From IMG/VR virus record IMGVR_UViG_2563366977_000005, positions 1 to 39,611 of that record: 39,611 nt of DNA. The stretch is one strand, 5' to 3'. Of this stretch, positions 3,938-38,734 are shown piece after piece. Both the position numbers and the translations under genes were made by a program. The DNA comes from a virus (Duplodnaviria > Heunggongvirae > Uroviricota > Caudoviricetes). Under the pieces are notes generated by a model. It was not told the DNA's origin. It saw only the letters and a program-made list of their open reading frames with translations, and made no database searches. Each line of letters opens with the position of its first letter. The first letter of the stretch is position 1.

Positions 3938-5980
3938 TGTAGCGTTAAATCTTGCTCTATAGTCTTTTCCTAATGCTATGAAATCTATGTCAGTGGGAGC
4001 GCCTGCAGTATTGTACATCCTTACAACGAATGAGTTTGCGGTAGGATAACCACCTATTATTCCGTATCCTGGTACCCCTACAGTAGTTATTTCTACAGCC
4101 ACGTTTGCTATATCATGATTTGCATTTACTGTATAAACCCCAGTCGCTCCCCTTGTAACACTGAGTATATTTCTCCTGTTTCCCATTGCTCCAGTCGCAC
4201 CAACAACGCTCACACCAAAAGCGAAGTCAGGAGAGCTTTTCCATTTAACAGTAGCATCCACAACCGGTGATTGTGATGGGATCCATAAGTTATCATAATC
4301 GATAAAAATAGCCTGCTCATTGGCGGAATATCCACTTATACTAACATCTGGCCTCGATGCGCTTGCCGTATAGCCAACCCCAAGGCAGGTATTACCACGC
4401 ATCTCCAGAGTCATAGTTACCCCTGACGGGTAACTATAATTACCACCCAGAACTATTACTTGGCTAACAGGATACTGCGTATCGTTATTGTTGAAGTTAC
4501 TATTTGAAATAACATGCTTGATAGAGCGGTTGTTGCTATGGGTTATGTAGAACGGGTATCCACTAACAGTTTCCACATACAACCCATCTACTACTAACCC
4601 GACGGTGCCGTCAGAACCTCCACCCTGCACGTAGAACCCACGGAATGTAGTGTCCCCCGGAGAACCACACCCTTCAATGCTACCGCCATCAATTTGGAAT
4701 TGTGTAGCGTTAACTATCCATAAACCCTGGTTTTCCATAGTAAGAATCTGTGGGCGAATGAATCTGTTAGCGTTAGGGTTGGCATAACCAGAACCAACCG
4801 TTCCCCCTGCCTCAAACTTCGCCCCACGATAGCCACTAAACCAGCACGGCTCAATCCATGTGCATGACAGTACGCTTTGCGCAAGAAGTTGTTGGTATCC
4901 CCCCGCCCATTTGACACGCTCAATTACTGCCCCTGTCAGGCGGCCCAACTTCATTAAATAGCCAGTTTTGGTAAGGCCTTTCTCTCGAATCTGGAAGTCT
5001 TTCATACCCCAAGTTTGGGTAAAACTATCCAACATGCACGTGATGTTATATGTATCAGTACCCAACGGGGTGCATATAAAGTAACTGCTGTTTATGCCGT
5101 ATCCTTCAATCCGCGGCATGGCTGACGTATTGTCAAAAAAAGCTGGCATACTCACAGCTTTTTCTAAGTGGATAAACCCATACCCAAGCTGAACATGTTT
5201 ACCTAAGGCTGCCGCTGCATTGAAGACATTTTGTAATGCATCACTATGCGCGGATGAAGATGTGGATGTTGATCCATCTCCAATACCAGCCCAATCAGTA
5301 TGAATATGTGTGGCATCACCAATATCTCTCACCCACACGCCACTCCCGGTAGGATCAGTTTCACCCTGACCAGTAACATATGATGAAAGATTTGTGCTGT
5401 AAGGCACGGTCGGGCTGAAGTATATGCAGCCGTCATGCTTAGCTTTCGGAACATTAGCCTGGAAGATAAACTCACCACCACCTTTTGGCTTTCCATATGT
5501 AGTTACACTCCAACCAGCATACCAACTACGTAGTTTTACACGAGCGCCGTCGTTTTTAACAAGACCAAAGAAGTCAGCAGCTGATTGCAACTCCCCTATG
5601 TACGAATAACCTTCCTTGCCAGCCAATAATTGCATTAATGCTTCAGGATCATACCTTACCACATTGTCAAAATAATATTCCTGAGAACCATAAGAGTCGT
5701 AAACAGCAAGACTATATTGTTCATCTGTAATTATTTTATTTATTATTTGACCATTATAAACAGGATGACCACCGGAGTTTATAACAATCGGTTGTGGAAT
5801 CTGTATCTTATTTCCACTCTCATTAACGATATATACTGGAACCTGATTTTCAGGATATACAGGGTCTGTGTCAGGAATACCTACATATATTTTACCATTT
5901 GAAATAGCTTTGAATGAACGCGATGCTGTGTACAGACTCATTGGCATATTTACAAGAATTGACTGTGACGTCTCTGACAT
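3935..5980 (-). CDS. Tailspike protein (681 aa) with P22 gp9-like N-terminal head-binding domain
   Basis: First ~110 aa (SRSFKAISNGKIYVG...PVYNGQ...YDP) align with the recalled P22 tailspike N-terminus; remainder divergent (receptor-binding part). Confidence 0.85.
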   Translation of the reverse strand: MSETSQSILVNMPMSLYTASRSFKAISNGKIYVGIPDTDPVYPENQVPVYIVNESGNKIQIPQPIVINSGGHPVYNGQIINKIITDEQYSLAVYDSYGSQEYYFDNVVRYDPEALMQLLAGKEGYSYIGELQSAADFFGLVKNDGARVKLRSWYAGWSVTTYGKPKGGGEFIFQANVPKAKHDGCIYFSPTVPYSTNLSSYVTGQGETDPTGSGVWVRDIGDATHIHTDWAGIGDGSTSTSSSAHSDALQNVFNAAAALGKHVQLGYGFIHLEKAVSMPAFFDNTSAMPRIEGYGINSSYFICTPLGTDTYNITCMLDSFTQTWGMKDFQIREKGLTKTGYLMKLGRLTGAVIERVKWAGGYQQLLAQSVLSCTWIEPCWFSGYRGAKFEAGGTVGSGYANPNANRFIRPQILTMENQGLWIVNATQFQIDGGSIEGCGSPGDTTFRGFYVQGGGSDGTVGLVVDGLYVETVSGYPFYITHSNNRSIKHVISNSNFNNNDTQYPVSQVIVLGGNYSYPSGVTMTLEMRGNTCLGVGYTASASRPDVSISGYSANEQAIFIDYDNLWIPSQSPVVDATVKWKSSPDFAFGVSVVGATGAMGNRRNILSVTRGATGVYTVNANHDIANVAVEITTVGVPGYGIIGGYPTANSFVVRMYNTAGAPTDIDFIALGKDYRARFNAT

Positions 5981-6079
5981 TTAAGGGCTCCAAATGCAAG
6001 TAATAGACTCAGCGTGGATATGATTGAGATTCATTACATACCAAAATGGTACTATTGAGTGTTTATCCAGTAGGTTACG

Positions 6080-6373
6080 ATGCCATTCCACCCAACTGGT
6101 GAGGCATCAAGGATGTACAGCAAATACGACGAGGCGCAGTTTCACTTGAGACTTCCGCATGAACTCCACGCGAAAATTAAGCAGCGTGCGAAGATGAATA
6201 ACAGGTCGCTGAACTCAGAGATAATTGCAGCGATTGAAGAATCATTGGCTAAACAAAGCTCTGCATCAGTTTACATTGACGATGCAGAGCGTATGGCAGA
6301 ACAACAATCTGATATGGTTAAGAAAATTGTCTTTGATACGCTCAAGGAGCTATATAAAAAAGACAGCAGCTAA
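6080..6373 (+). CDS. mnt: Mnt-like ribbon-helix-helix repressor (alternative start at 6113)
   Basis: FHLRLPHELHAKIKQRAKMNNRSLNSEIIAAIEE and C-terminal ...VKKIVFDTLKELYKK resemble recalled P22 Mnt; divergent from tailspike as in P22 immI. Confidence 0.7.
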   Translation: MPFHPTGEASRMYSKYDEAQFHLRLPHELHAKIKQRAKMNNRSLNSEIIAAIEESLAKQSSASVYIDDAERMAEQQSDMVKKIVFDTLKELYKKDSS

Positions 6374-6393
6374 CCATCAGTTACGGAGGATTT

Positions 6394-6471
6394 ATGCAAA
6401 GAGATATGCTGAACATTGCGTTCTACATATTTGGTTTTTGCACGTTCCTGGTGTTTGCAAAGCTATTCTGA
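6394..6471 (+). CDS. Candidate 25-aa hydrophobic peptide (MQRDMLNIAFYIFGFCTFLVFAKLF)
   Basis: GGAGGA Shine-Dalgarno 4 nt upstream of ATG, directly after mnt stop; single predicted TM helix; below the ORF-track size cutoff. Confidence 0.3.
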   Translation: MQRDMLNIAFYIFGFCTFLVFAKLF

Positions 6472-8460
6472 CAACGCATCAGACTTAGCCCCCTGCGTCA
6501 GAGCGTTAATTGCCTTTTGTGCCTGCTGCATTGCTTTCTCAAAGGCTGTTGATCCGCGTGGGGTGTTTGCCATTCGGAGCATTGCATTTCTGAATGGTTC
6601 GCTCTCATAGGCGCGAGTAAGAAGTCCGTAGCTTACCGCTGCGCCAGTTGTCGCCGGGTTCATTGCCGTCCCATACCCGATAATGAACGGGATGGTTTGC
6701 TGCCCTGTTGGTGTTGTTACTGCCGCTTTTGCAGCCTGCTGCGTGGATTGCAGGTAGTTTTTCAATCCTTTCAGATAAGCGGCTTCCTGACCTTTAAATG
6801 TGATGCCAGTCTGGTTTTGCAGGATGTTAAGCTGCCGAAGGAACTGGTCAGGGGATCCGCCAGATTTCTCCATCGCCTTTCCAATGATGCCATTGCGCAT
6901 TTGCGCCCTGCCAACACGACCAACTGAGTTATACAGCGTCTTAATTTCCGATTTGTTCTTGCTGAATAGCATGTTGTTGACAACTTCCGGCGTCAGGTCG
7001 CCTTTCATGAGAACATTCTTCAGCCTGGTATTCTTTAGTTTCGCCGCTTCGTCAGCGTAGAGGGCATTGGCCTGCTGATATTTACGGAGAGTATCGTTGC
7101 CAAGATTCTGACCAATGGCACCATTGATATCGTCGGTCATTGCCTTGTAAACGCGCTGAATGGCAGCATCGGAACGGTTTGGTAACACTGGTCGCTCCCC
7201 CTTCACGTCCATTCTGAACTGGCTGCGCAGATCGCTTAATTGCTTCAAATCCAGATTTACCGGACCATCAGGACCAGCATTGCGAACAAGCTCATCACGA
7301 TAGGACTGAAGTTTTGAAATAGTCTCGTTATCAGCAACCTTACCAAGCTTCTGCAGGTTAGATATTTCTGTATCAATCTGCTGAATTGCTCTTGCAGGCT
7401 GAATGTTTATTCCAGCCATAGCATTCTGAACCTGCTCCAGTCGATTTCCTGCAGCGCGACGAATTCCTGATGTTTTCGCTTTAAGGCTGTCAATAACAAC
7501 CGCTGGATCATACTCACCGAATTTATCAGCAAATCTCTGCACCAACTGGCTTCTCGCTTCCTGTTGCGTTGCTCTCATTCCGCTTGTGCCAGCCAGAGGG
7601 ATATTTTCTGCTGTAGTCTGCGCCATTTTTCCGACGCGGGAAGTTGGTTGTAACAGGTCTGTGGTGTGCAGAGGAACTCCTTCACGCTCTGCAAATCTGA
7701 TAGCCTGCTGCGCTTCTGGCGCGATAGCACCACGAACGCCACGATAAGCAGCACCTAACCCACGTCCGGCAGCGTTAATAGCACCGCCAGTAAGTACACC
7801 AACGCCTAAATCGGTAGCGAGTGCTTCCGCATCATCTTTCGCACTATTTGCAGCAAGTGACCCGACTGCGTTTTCAGCGAGAAGGCGAGTTGCACCCTGA
7901 GCAATTCTACCAGCGAGTGTTGGTGCCTGTGTTGCCGCTCTCTCAATGCCAGCAGGAGTGAGGTAAGGCAATGCCTCAGCAAATACCCTTCCCTCTGTAG
8001 TTTGTGGAGTCAGCGCGCCTTGCTGAAGGCCAAAGTCCTGCTCTAATCCCTGCGTTGTTACTCGTGGCGCTGGGTGATATGTCCCATCGCCAATTCCGAG
8101 TTTACCGCCAGCCCAAGTCGCCGCGCTTGTTACAGCATCGGCAACTGATGCAGGTATGTTTGCCACGTTCACGCCAGCCTGCACCAGTCCGCGACCAGTC
8201 TCTTTTACTGCTTCGCCAAGATCAGACATAAATCCACTTTGCTGTGGTTGTTGCTGTGCTTCTGGTTGCGGCGTCTCCACTGGCGACACAGATGGCAATG
8301 GATAGGAAGCATAGAAAGCTTGCTTAGCCTGCTCTGCATTTTCTCCGGCTTGCGGGGCAACGACTTCATTGAAGTATTGCTCCTGAGCCTGCGCTTTTTG
8401 TTCTGGTGCTAACGCCTGATACTGTGGAGAGGCGATAACATCTTTCCATGCTTTAGCCAT
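6463..8460 (-). CDS. Ejection/injection protein, P22 gp16-like (665 aa)
   Basis: Position and size in the P22 late gene order (4-10-26-14-7-20-16); Ala/Gln-rich composition typical of ejection proteins. Confidence 0.75.
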   Translation of the reverse strand: MAKAWKDVIASPQYQALAPEQKAQAQEQYFNEVVAPQAGENAEQAKQAFYASYPLPSVSPVETPQPEAQQQPQQSGFMSDLGEAVKETGRGLVQAGVNVANIPASVADAVTSAATWAGGKLGIGDGTYHPAPRVTTQGLEQDFGLQQGALTPQTTEGRVFAEALPYLTPAGIERAATQAPTLAGRIAQGATRLLAENAVGSLAANSAKDDAEALATDLGVGVLTGGAINAAGRGLGAAYRGVRGAIAPEAQQAIRFAEREGVPLHTTDLLQPTSRVGKMAQTTAENIPLAGTSGMRATQQEARSQLVQRFADKFGEYDPAVVIDSLKAKTSGIRRAAGNRLEQVQNAMAGINIQPARAIQQIDTEISNLQKLGKVADNETISKLQSYRDELVRNAGPDGPVNLDLKQLSDLRSQFRMDVKGERPVLPNRSDAAIQRVYKAMTDDINGAIGQNLGNDTLRKYQQANALYADEAAKLKNTRLKNVLMKGDLTPEVVNNMLFSKNKSEIKTLYNSVGRVGRAQMRNGIIGKAMEKSGGSPDQFLRQLNILQNQTGITFKGQEAAYLKGLKNYLQSTQQAAKAAVTTPTGQQTIPFIIGYGTAMNPATTGAAVSYGLLTRAYESEPFRNAMLRMANTPRGSTAFEKAMQQAQKAINALTQGAKSDALSE

Positions 8461-31956: not shown

Positions 31957-32114
31957 AGCATTCAAAGCAGAAGGCTTTGGGGTGTGTGATACGAAACGAA
32001 GCATTGGCCGGAAGTGCGAATCCGGATTAGCTGCCAATGCGCCAATCGCGGGGTGTTTTCGTTCAGGACTACGACTCCCACACACCACCAAAGCTAACTG
32101 ACAGGAGAATCCAG

Positions 32115-32441
32115 ATGGATGCACAAACACGCCGCCGCGAACGTCGCGCAGAGAAACAGGCTCAATGGAAAGCAGCAAATCCCCTGTTGGTTGGGGTAAG
32201 CGCAAAACCAGTTAACCGCCCTATTCTCTCGCTGAATCGCAAACCGAAATCACGAGTAGAAAGCGCACTGAATCCGATAGACCTTACGGTGCTGGCTGAA
32301 TACCACGAACAGATTGAAAGCAACCTGCAACGTATTGAGCGCAAGAATCAGCGCACATGGTACAGCAAGCCACGCAGTGAAATGGGTGTGACTTGTGTTG
32401 GTCGCCAGAAAATGAAATTAGGCAGCAAACCACTTATTTGA
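32115..32441 (+). CDS. N: Antiterminator N (lambda N-type), 108 aa
   Basis: From the internal Met, the arginine-rich motif MDAQTRRRERRAEKQAQWKAAN matches recalled lambda N; nutL upstream. Confidence 0.9.
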   Translation: MDAQTRRRERRAEKQAQWKAANPLLVGVSAKPVNRPILSLNRKPKSRVESALNPIDLTVLAEYHEQIESNLQRIERKNQRTWYSKPRSEMGVTCVGRQKMKLGSKPLI

Positions 32442-32449
32442 GGTGATAT

Positions 32450-32701
32450 ATGGAATTTCATGAAAGTGCGATTTATGATTTTCGCGCTAACGCAAATTCA
32501 GTAAAACCACAGCCAATTGCAGTTCTTTTTAAAACAATGGGTGCGTGGGCTGTTTTATGCTTCGCCTCTGATGACACTGACGCAAGAATGGCAATAGGCC
32601 AAGAGATGGAGATGGACCCGACAAACGATGAATTCATAATTTATGGCGCTCCATCTAATTACTTACTTGATACCTGCAACATTTACAACAAGGCTGCCTG
32701 A
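32450..32701 (+). CDS. Hypothetical early-left protein (83 aa)
   Basis: ORF starts 9 nt after N stop. Confidence 0.5.
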   Translation: MEFHESAIYDFRANANSVKPQPIAVLFKTMGAWAVLCFASDDTDARMAIGQEMEMDPTNDEFIIYGAPSNYLLDTCNIYNKAA

Positions 32702-35473: not shown

Positions 35474-35638
35474 ATGAGAGGACTTGCATACAATCCCGGC
35501 ATTCTTCCGGCAGAAATGATTATTCGCCAACGCGTAAAGCCAATGCCATCGAGAGAGGAATTGCTTAAGAGAAATTCTTTTCCATCAGTAAATCAAAACA
35601 AATATCTGAATGCGATGTGGCGGAGTGGGAAGAAATGA
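35474..35638 (+). CDS. Small ORF (54 aa)
   Basis: Internal Met of ORF 35324-35638 placed just after the previous stop. Confidence 0.35.
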
Positions 35639-35913
35639 AACAAATGTCACTAATTGAGATGGATGGATTTCTGAAAGGTAAATGCATCCCACGAGATTTA
35701 AAGGTTAACGAAACAAACGCTGAATATCTTGTCCGTAAGTTCGGTGAACTTGAATCAAAACTCAACGAGCAGCGTGAGTATTACGAAGGTGTTATCTCGG
35801 ATGGGAGTAAGCGCATTGCTGAACTGGAGAAAAGCGAAGAGCAACTCATTATTGAGCAAGCAACTCACTGGATGCCACTACCAGAACCGCCACAGGAGTC
35901 GAAGAGTGAATAA
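35617..35913 (+). CDS. Hypothetical acidic coiled-coil protein (98 aa)
   Basis: ORF overlapping neighbours by short junctions. Confidence 0.45.
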
Positions 35914-36789: not shown

Positions 36790-37232
36790 GCAATAGTACG
36801 ATAAAGAGGCCCCATGCTCTTGATGGGGCCTGTAGCAACTAGCGTTATGGACGCTGGTTTACGTACTCAATGATCGCTTTGATAATCGCGAACATCGGCG
36901 GCACGATTTTGAACAGTAAGTTAACCATAACAGGCCTCACTTAGTTTTATCGCGCCTAGCTGCAAATACCTTTGGGCTTGCCTTTGCAGTTGCAATATCT
37001 GTAGTCGCCAGATACTTACGGCACGATTTCGAGTTAAGGTAAGGTTTTAGAGTCACCAAAAACCTGGACTTAAATCTTCTTTGAGAACAACGATGTTTAG
37101 TAAATGGTCATTATTACCTGGTATGACCACTCAACGTTTCTTGATGAATCCAGTACATTCGGTTAATCTTAATTCAGTCGCCAGATACTTATGGCTCAGG
37201 AACAGAGCCGCAAACTCTGTTTCCTTTTAAAA

Positions 37233-37260
37233 AGCCCAGCCTAGTCAACTGGGCTTTTTA
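37233..37260. terminator. Bidirectional intrinsic terminator
   Basis: AGCCCAG / CTGGGCT stem flanked by A4 upstream and T5 downstream. Confidence 0.65.
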
Positions 37261-37554
37261 ATGTCTATTTTTAACCCAATGAACCTTCAATACCGCAACA
37301 TCAGTGTCTTGCGAATTAAGATAGTGTGTATAGGTTATACATGCAAGTGCATAACTCTGTGGATAACTCAGGAAGGAAAAAGTAGCTTCCGCGCAATTTA
37401 GGCCAGACAAGGCTTTCGCAAAAGTCAACGGAGAGAAAAAATTTGTTAAAAATAACGTTTGTTGGAATTGTATATATTTATGCCTTTCAATAGTTAGCAT
37501 CTTATTAACATCTTTTTTAAGAGATAGAGTTCAAAAATATATAGCTTCAACATA

Positions 37555-37574
37555 TACTGTATGTATATACAGCA
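37555..37574. promoter_or_regulatory. LexA (SOS) box TACTGTATGTATATACAGCA
   Basis: CTG-N10-CAG with TA-rich spacer matching the E. coli LexA consensus; 17 nt upstream of the umuD'-like ATG. Confidence 0.7.
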
Positions 37575-37590
37575 TTAAGAGGCGAGTATT

Positions 37591-38046
37591 ATGGGCTTCC
37601 CTTCTCCTGCGGCGGATTATGCTGAGAGCCGTATTTCTCTTGATCAGCAGATAATTAGACATCCTTCAGCGACCTACTTCTTGAGGGCAGCTGATAGCCA
37701 TCATCGTGAGGGAATATTGCAGGGTGCATTGCTGGTGGTCGATTCATCACTCACTCCTGTTGATGGATCTCTTCTTGTATGTGCTCTGGATGGGGAATAT
37801 CGCGTAAAAAGATACCGGAAGTATCCGCGCCGCCATGATTGTCTTTCTCCTAATGCAGGAAAAGCAGAATGGCTAAATCATCAGCAGAGCGCAAAGCCGA
37901 TCAGAGAGCCAAGCAAGCATCATCCGGTATGCGTAAGCTGGAGCTTGTACTTGATGCTCAGGAAATTGAAATGCTGGATCGTAACTGAGCCACGCGCCGC
38001 TTCAGGCATTCGCCTTGCGAGTTTGGTGAGTACATCGCGTTACTGA
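37591..38046 (+). pseudogene. umuD'-like gene remnant: first ~85 codons are UmuD/S24-peptidase-like, remainder of the ORF is not
   Basis: GFPSPAADY...HPSATYF...LLVVDS...DGEYRVKR aligns with recalled UmuD including Ser and Lys positions; the C-terminal half is R/S/W/C-rich and looks out of frame; no frame continues the homology. Confidence 0.5.
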
Positions 38047-38207
38047 GCCGCCAGGATGATGCACGTGTGCGCTGGCGTATAAAATCGATCAGCAGAAAAC
38101 GTTGCGGTAAGTGCGGCGAGAGAGTTCCTGTTAATTCATGCCCGTGTAATGGTGACTCACAATGCTGGGTGACCAAAGGCTGGCACGAAACAAAATTAAT
38201 GATATAA
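37869..38207 (+). other. ORF with RBS interrupted by in-frame TGA (37986-37988); 39-aa N-terminal part plus 72-codon Cys-rich continuation
   Basis: Hand translation: MAKSSAERKADQRAKQASSGMRKLELVLDAQEIEMLDRN-stop-ATRRFRHSPCEFGEYIALLSRQDDARVRWRIKSISRKRCGKCGERVPVNSCPCNGDSQCWVTKGWHETKLMI. Confidence 0.3.
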
Positions 38208-38213
38208 ATCTCT

Positions 38214-38225
38214 GTGACATGTCAC
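38214..38225. promoter_or_regulatory. Perfect 12-bp palindrome GTGACATGTCAC just upstream of the RBS of the next gene
   Basis: Directly visible; candidate operator. Confidence 0.35.
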
Positions 38226-38235
38226 GGAGGCGGCA

Positions 38236-38664
38236 ATGAAATTAGACCAGCAATATCTAAAAGATTTACTTATCGCATTCGAAAAAACTCGTGGCCCTGA
38301 CACGATGCTTAGTGAACTAGAGGATAATGGCTTTAATAGATATGACCAAGATTTTATTTTCCATATGCGATTATTATATGACTACGAATTAATAGTCAGG
38401 GTTGATGGAAAACCTGGGTTCGGTCATATAATGTCCAAAGCGTTAGGGGAAGGTGTTGGATATAGTTGGATCGAAGTACCACTGAGGTTGACAGCAAGAG
38501 GGCATGATTTTATTGCTGACTTACGTCAAAAGGATGTCTGGCAAGCTATAAAAACAAACTTTAAGGATGAGGGAATTAGTACACTTATGAGTGTTTCAAA
38601 ATCACTAGCAAAAGGCTTTGCAAGGAAAAAGATAAAAGATATTACAGGAATAGATATTGAATAA
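38236..38664 (+). CDS. Hypothetical protein (142 aa)
   Basis: ORF with GGAGG upstream of ATG; followed by an intrinsic terminator. Confidence 0.6.
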   Translation: MKLDQQYLKDLLIAFEKTRGPDTMLSELEDNGFNRYDQDFIFHMRLLYDYELIVRVDGKPGFGHIMSKALGEGVGYSWIEVPLRLTARGHDFIADLRQKDVWQAIKTNFKDEGISTLMSVSKSLAKGFARKKIKDITGIDIE

Positions 38665-38709
38665 TTCTTAGCATCAAGCAACTACTGCCTTTGGTGGAAA
38701 TTATATCTG

Positions 38710-38734
38710 AACTCGCTACGGCGAGTTTTGTTTT
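38710..38734 (+). terminator. Intrinsic terminator
   Basis: AACTCGC-TACG-GCGAGTT hairpin followed by TTGTTTT. Confidence 0.6.

Follow-up and report, generated by a model that had tools for sequence, protein, structure and literature searches.

The closest described relatives of the reading frame analysed here are PhiV10p55 of Escherichia phage phiV10 (YP_512310) and gp49 of Salmonella phage epsilon15 (NP_848257), the record of which notes similarity to N15 gp46. All belong to PHROG 536, for which 'transcriptional regulator' is a PHROG-derived label of predicted function. The intact homologs are single 339-nt ORFs encoding 112 aa, and are matched by the PHROG 536 profile with an E-value of 1e-54. 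The family comprises ~720 clusters at 90% identity from enterobacterial and Vibrio phages. Among the best 120 of these clusters nearly all proteins are 112 aa long, those that are named are called 'hypothetical protein' or 'phage protein', and no Pfam domain is found except in one longer, likely fused protein. The family reaches N15 gp46, phiKO2 gp45 and proteins of Yersinia, Vibrio and Aeromonas phages; these distant members (31-42% identity) are all intact and share with the gene described here a basic N-terminus, an EYIALLIRQD helix and a C-x2-C...C...C zinc-ribbon-like C-terminus. A search for a documented function of these distant homologs returned none, and the literature on epsilon15 gp49 yielded only unrelated gp49 proteins.

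In the window (the whole 39,611-nt stretch of DNA that was analysed), positions 37869-38207 are very probably a pseudogene descended from a phage accessory gene of 112 codons in PHROG 536, the family that includes epsilon15 gp49, phiV10 p55 and N15 gp46. The interval translates as MAKSSAERKADQRAKQASSGMRKLELVLDAQEIEMLDRN*ATRRFRHSPCEFGEYIALLSRQDDARVRWRIKSISRKRCGKCGERVPVNSCPCNGDSQCWVTKGWHETKLMI*, that is, an ORF of 39 codons, a TGA at 37986-37988 and then 72 open codons to a TAA at 38205-38207 (Table 1). A preliminary description, made from the sequence alone, had described one ORF broken by an in-frame TGA after 39 aa and followed by a Cys-rich, zinc-ribbon-like continuation. Our translation reproduced this layout and the cysteine pattern of the C-terminal part (C79-x2-C82, C91-x-C93, C99), and the GTG at 38067 is, as described, the sole in-frame alternative start downstream of the TGA. 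The AGGA reported before the ATG at 37869 is present, at a spacing of 8 nt where ~9 had been given, and the umuD' homology noted upstream corresponds to the N-terminal part of a HumD/UmuD'-like protein. Four explanations had been listed for the stop; the nonsense-mutated gene is upheld by the data below, whereas sequencing error, stop-codon readthrough and two small genes are not. The public PGAP annotation already marks the locus as a pseudogene: in E. coli MLI108K3 (NZ_CP117006.1), which is 100% identical to the window over the 681 bases tested, the interval identical to 37869-38207 is entered as a 'hypothetical protein' pseudogene with 'internal stop'. A minus-strand ORF of 72 aa (37958-38176) overlaps the conserved plus-strand frame and was set aside as a mechanical ORF only.

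Table 1. Features of the locus and its surroundings (window coordinates).
Feature	Position	Strand	Evidence or remark
Promoter-like site with consensus LexA box	37530..37572	+	Promoter-like site 37530-37558; LexA box TACTGTATGTATATACAG at 37555-37572
Truncated humD (UmuD'-like) remnant	37591..37836	+	Residues 1-82 of 129; NCBIfam NF051876, E 2e-41; also a pseudogene
AGGA, Shine-Dalgarno-like	37857..37860	+	Sequence read directly; 8 nt to the ATG
Whole reading frame, read as a pseudogene	37869..38207	+	Nonsense allele of a PHROG 536 gene; 112 codons, codon 40 a stop
Codons 1-39, basic N-terminal part	37869..37985	+	PHROG 536 positions 2-40, E 2e-10
Opal stop TGA in place of Cys40	37986..37988	+	Alignment: TGT/TGC in intact homologs
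Codons 41-112 and TAA, presumed untranslated rest	37989..38207	+	PHROG 536 positions 42-114, E 3e-30; alignment with N15 gp46 and Vibrio/Yersinia phage homologs
DUF2513 / phrog_585 gene, intact, downstream	38236..38664	+	In every TGA-allele locus with downstream sequence
Terminator-like hairpin	38709-38728		After the DUF2513 gene

The two halves of the frame match consecutive parts of a single phage profile, a pattern beyond chance, and the TGA falls on the one PHROG 536 position missing between the two half-matches (Table 1). At this position the alignment has TGT in phiV10 and phage Chlobot and TGC in epsilon15. All 62 unique intact close homologs have Cys40, which is also kept in N15 gp46 and Vibrio phage K303. 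The homologs therefore do have a sense codon at the stop, a question that the preliminary description had raised, and the two parts, which it had considered might never occur together, are contiguous in the intact homologs examined as one uninterrupted 112-aa ORF. The gene of phiV10 shows ~90% DNA identity to the window copy over the whole 339 nt and that of epsilon15 ~71% over 339 nt. Both agree with the window copy in length, in start and stop positions and in the Cys motif. Both are intact with Cys40, in contrast to the window copy with its TGA at codon 40 and the replacements E37D, R47H and A48S, and both are preceded by an overlapping ASCH-domain or hypothetical gene rather than by a humD remnant. 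The window copy thus retains a full-length profile match and the C-terminal C-x2-C...C...C motif (C79, C82, C91, C99) but, given the TGA at codon 40, is not the single uninterrupted ORF of ~112 codons typical of PHROG 536, and we class it as a pseudogene derivative rather than as a functional member of the family.

To see how far the stop extends beyond the window, we scored codon 40 in related loci. A degenerate pattern around this codon matched at least 120 IMG/VR contigs. Among the matches listed the codon was TGT in 66 sequences, TGC in 47 and TGA in 17 (n = 130, made up of 120 IMG/VR matches listed and 10 other loci, 7 of the latter with TGA), so that Cys is encoded in 113 of the 130 sequences scored. 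A TGA-specific pattern was found in 18 IMG/VR contigs in all. The TGA total stands at 26 sequences with 11 haplotypes, some from assembled E. coli genomes and others from viral contigs of IMG/VR. Complete E. coli genomes with this allele are of human, chicken, cattle, pig and seawater origin; the PHROG 536 gene itself is present in 638 of 5,426 complete E. coli genomes. Six genomes with the long humD remnant of the window carry the TGA allele, as do ATCC 8739-type prophages, where the remnant is shorter, and other strains. PGAP records a pseudogene with internal stop in every TGA-carrying genome inspected and a normal, intact CDS in one TGT-carrying genome, that of strain ESBL 15, the allele of which is closely related.

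All 26 TGA sequences carry 120T>A together with the synonymous change 129T>C, and this common mutation with its linked neighbour suggests that the TGA allele arose once. The same data bear on a sequencing or assembly error, in which the true codon would be TGT. The window differs from intact homologs at the stop by only a single base, as such an error would predict, but the identical TGA and the linked change at nt 129 recur in separate E. coli assemblies and in IMG/VR contigs; these come from different hosts and sources and represent several haplotypes that have diverged from one another. This recurrence excludes an error for practical purposes.

We then compared the substitutions accumulated by intact and interrupted copies. 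Purifying selection is indicated for the 62 unique intact homologs by pN/pS values of 0.28 before the stop position (codons 1-39) and 0.23 after it (codons 41-112). The TGA lineage, by contrast, has 15 nonsynonymous and 4 synonymous changes (omega ~1.05), divided 5:0 upstream of the stop and 10:4 downstream. In a binomial test this ratio differs from that expected under constraint (P 0.005) and agrees with neutrality (P 0.6), on small counts (19 events) and with a borderline result for the downstream part alone (P 0.046). Six of the ten downstream replacements (R43H, R66H, G80R, G80D, V88A and C99Y) fall on columns that are invariant in intact homologs. C99Y, found in a sister group of TGA alleles, removes a core cysteine of the zinc ribbon, one of four that are still found in N15 gp46 and in the homologs from Vibrio and Yersinia phages; the window keeps C99. 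In one TGA allele the reading frame is also broken at a site before the stop. Independent lesions, namely a different stop at C79 and frameshifts, occur in further alleles of the shallow clade to which the TGA alleles belong. Together the neutral ratio, the lost invariant residues and the extra lesions support a gene in decay, neither half of which is acting as a constrained small gene. The locus thus combines a sense codon in homologs, a heritable lesion and constraint that was relaxed after the lesion, as a nonsense pseudogene should. The 72 codons after the TGA are still open in 25 of the 26 TGA alleles; this is expected of a young pseudogene, yet it is also predicted by recoding.

These substitution data also address the possibility of two genes, one for the N-terminal 39 aa and one for a zinc-ribbon peptide of 46 aa that starts at GTG 38067. 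Annotators have called both pieces as genes: the 40-aa family phrog_34005 covers residues 1-40 and nothing beyond (E 9e-28), and the record of phage Chlobot annotates only a 141-nt GTG ORF. In the window an AGGA (38053-38056) stands 10 nt before the GTG. The 112-codon ORF of Chlobot is actually intact, however, so its short call is an annotation choice, and the AGGA is part of conserved Q-D-D codons that are present in every homolog. Given that the N-terminal part of the TGA lineage has only nonsynonymous changes and that the C-terminal part loses G80 and C99, neither piece is constrained, and we consider two separate genes very unlikely. The 40-aa phrog_34005 and the 46-aa GTG ORF of Chlobot each represent only part of one 112-aa gene.

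Bacterial selenoprotein genes, for example E. coli fdhF, carry a UGA and an adjacent SECIS hairpin. The window resembles them in having an in-frame UGA where homologs have Cys, the classic Sec/Cys pairing, and as this is a selenocysteine signature we tested for recoding, whereby selenocysteine would be inserted at the UGA, or Trp by readthrough, and the full-length 112-aa protein made at a low or regulated level. A frame that stays open after the UGA in nearly all TGA alleles, and the fairly wide spread of the allele, are in keeping with such decoding. In contrast to selenoprotein genes, the window has no SECIS-like hairpin 3' of the UGA and no downstream constraint. Shuffled sequences fold just as well as the 60 nt that follow the stop (z 0.16 for the window, 0.84 for ATCC 8739). 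When these 60 nt were folded in four alleles, no hairpin proved stable or conserved, and the predicted structures after the UGA differ from one allele to another. Rfam, searched over 37500-38400 with E-values up to 10 admitted, returned three chance matches, none of them SECIS-like. Furthermore, the TGA lineage evolves neutrally, with the loss of invariant residues including the zinc ligand C99, and the UGA allele, seen in 18 IMG/VR contigs where more than 100 encode Cys, is a derived minority state within a single shallow clade. Confinement of the stop to one shallow clade, with an extension that appears unconstrained, argues against programmed stop-codon readthrough, and we judge recoding to be highly improbable.

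Basal readthrough of UGA by tRNA-Trp occurs at a low level in E. coli, and traces of full-length C40W protein may be made from the window allele in this way. An extremely improbable variant is that inefficient decoding of the TGA (as Trp, or as Sec without a canonical SECIS) would supply a dose-limited full-length regulator only when the SOS-controlled humD promoter fires. If true, a recoded phage regulator would have spread through E. coli P22-like prophages.

We favour instead a model in which the frame is a nonsense pseudogene. A single T-to-A transversion would have converted the conserved Cys40 codon TGT to TGA, once and heritably, in a lineage of P22-like E. coli prophages for which the gene would be a non-essential accessory. 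Translation from the ATG should now stop after 39 residues, and the product would most likely be inactive, since its N-terminal domain would lack the second half and its four-Cys zinc ribbon would be missing altogether. The dead allele would then have been passed on with its neighbours, the humD remnant and the DUF2513 gene, by descent and by recombination between prophages, the gene drifting neutrally since the stop arose; the LexA-box promoter that precedes the humD remnant perhaps still drives transcription of this DNA. The in-frame stop would thereby represent routine decay of a prophage gene, not recoding, and the other pseudogenes in the same prophage fit such general decay.

Searches for the function of the intact family gave no usable result. 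With three homologs and with an alignment of 37 members, Pfam returned DUF4457 and Fer4_20 below threshold, which is noise, and neither one protein nor a profile had a match among PDB sequences with E as high as 10. The AlphaFold2 model, for which the 37-sequence alignment served as input, is of low confidence (pLDDT 68, pTM 0.46); its helices at 5-18, 30-41 and 52-67 are compatible with a ribbon-helix-helix monomer, and the best Foldseek match of this model in the PDB (E 2.3) is meaningless. The one hint independent of the PHROG label was a weak local similarity to E. coli YbfE, a CopG-like ribbon-helix-helix protein described as 'LexA regulated protein' (NCBIfam NF008671): residues 9-48 align with positions 38-77 of the YbfE profile at E 0.007-0.05 and 14-17 bits, against a cutoff of 62 bits. 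A basic N-terminus, a short beta-strand-like segment and two helices would fit a ribbon-helix-helix as in YbfE, although YbfE has no zinc-ribbon tail, unlike the PHROG 536 proteins. In these searches no profile match above cutoff and no structural match placed the family among ribbon-helix-helix (CopG/Arc/MetJ-type) proteins. As a working reading, we infer that the family consists of an N-terminal ribbon-helix-helix-like DNA-binding part and a four-Cys zinc ribbon, with codons 1-39 possibly the first half of the former domain. On this reading Cys40 ends the first helix, so that truncation there loses the second helix as well as the zinc ribbon and should abolish function.

In the MLI108K3 record the prophage that holds the pseudogene is P22-like, with a P22-type capsid, portal, gp4, gp10, tail needle, ejection proteins and tailspike, and is integrated at thrW, a tRNA-Thr gene next to proA. 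The pseudogene lies in the early-left accessory region, with recombination genes on one side and xis/int on the other. Upstream, the LexA (SOS) box overlaps the -10 element of the promoter-like site and lies 19 nt before the start of the truncated humD (Table 1). This arrangement points to a probable SOS-controlled promoter, predicted from these motifs, reading through the humD remnant and the pseudogene. The intact DUF2513 gene may perhaps now be SOS-inducible through the two pseudogenes.

The humD remnant, for which PGAP gives 'incomplete, missing C-terminus', has 94-98% DNA identity to humD of P1-like phages such as Cyrano, CMS-2020a and PhiR41_1 and is a piece of a P1-type gene within a P22-like prophage. 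ATCC 8739-type prophages have a still shorter remnant of 66 nt, and comparison of the long and short forms suggests nested deletions. To the left of the humD remnant, ~0.8 kb (36790-37590) extending from a gene for a 221-aa hypothetical protein is without an annotated gene and includes terminator-like hairpins, on the minus strand at 36807-36831 and on the plus strand at 37238-37255.

The window allele has seven lineage-specific substitutions, and six of them are clustered within 39 nt around the stop (37979-38017, gene nt 111-149), as E37D, C40*, R43R, R47H, A48S and Y50C. Related haplotypes hold nested subsets of these changes (120 and 129; 111-140; 111-149), and the cluster may represent either a local hotspot or a patch of gene conversion that has partly eroded. 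A diversity-generating retroelement was considered as its cause and rejected, as the changes are not adenine-specific.

PGAP lists four more pseudogenes in the prophage, at 5512-7293, 31975-32067, 32370-32596 and 35635-35847; they comprise a lytic-transglycosylase-type ejection protein without its N-terminus, a partial 'regulator', a frameshifted DUF7446 gene and a truncated hypothetical gene. The prophage is probably defective. Positions 1-1126 of the window and the DNA just to their left carry an RNA-directed DNA polymerase gene, an ash-family gene, a frameshifted HTH gene and an integrase fragment, which look like the remnants of a second mobile element integrated in tandem.
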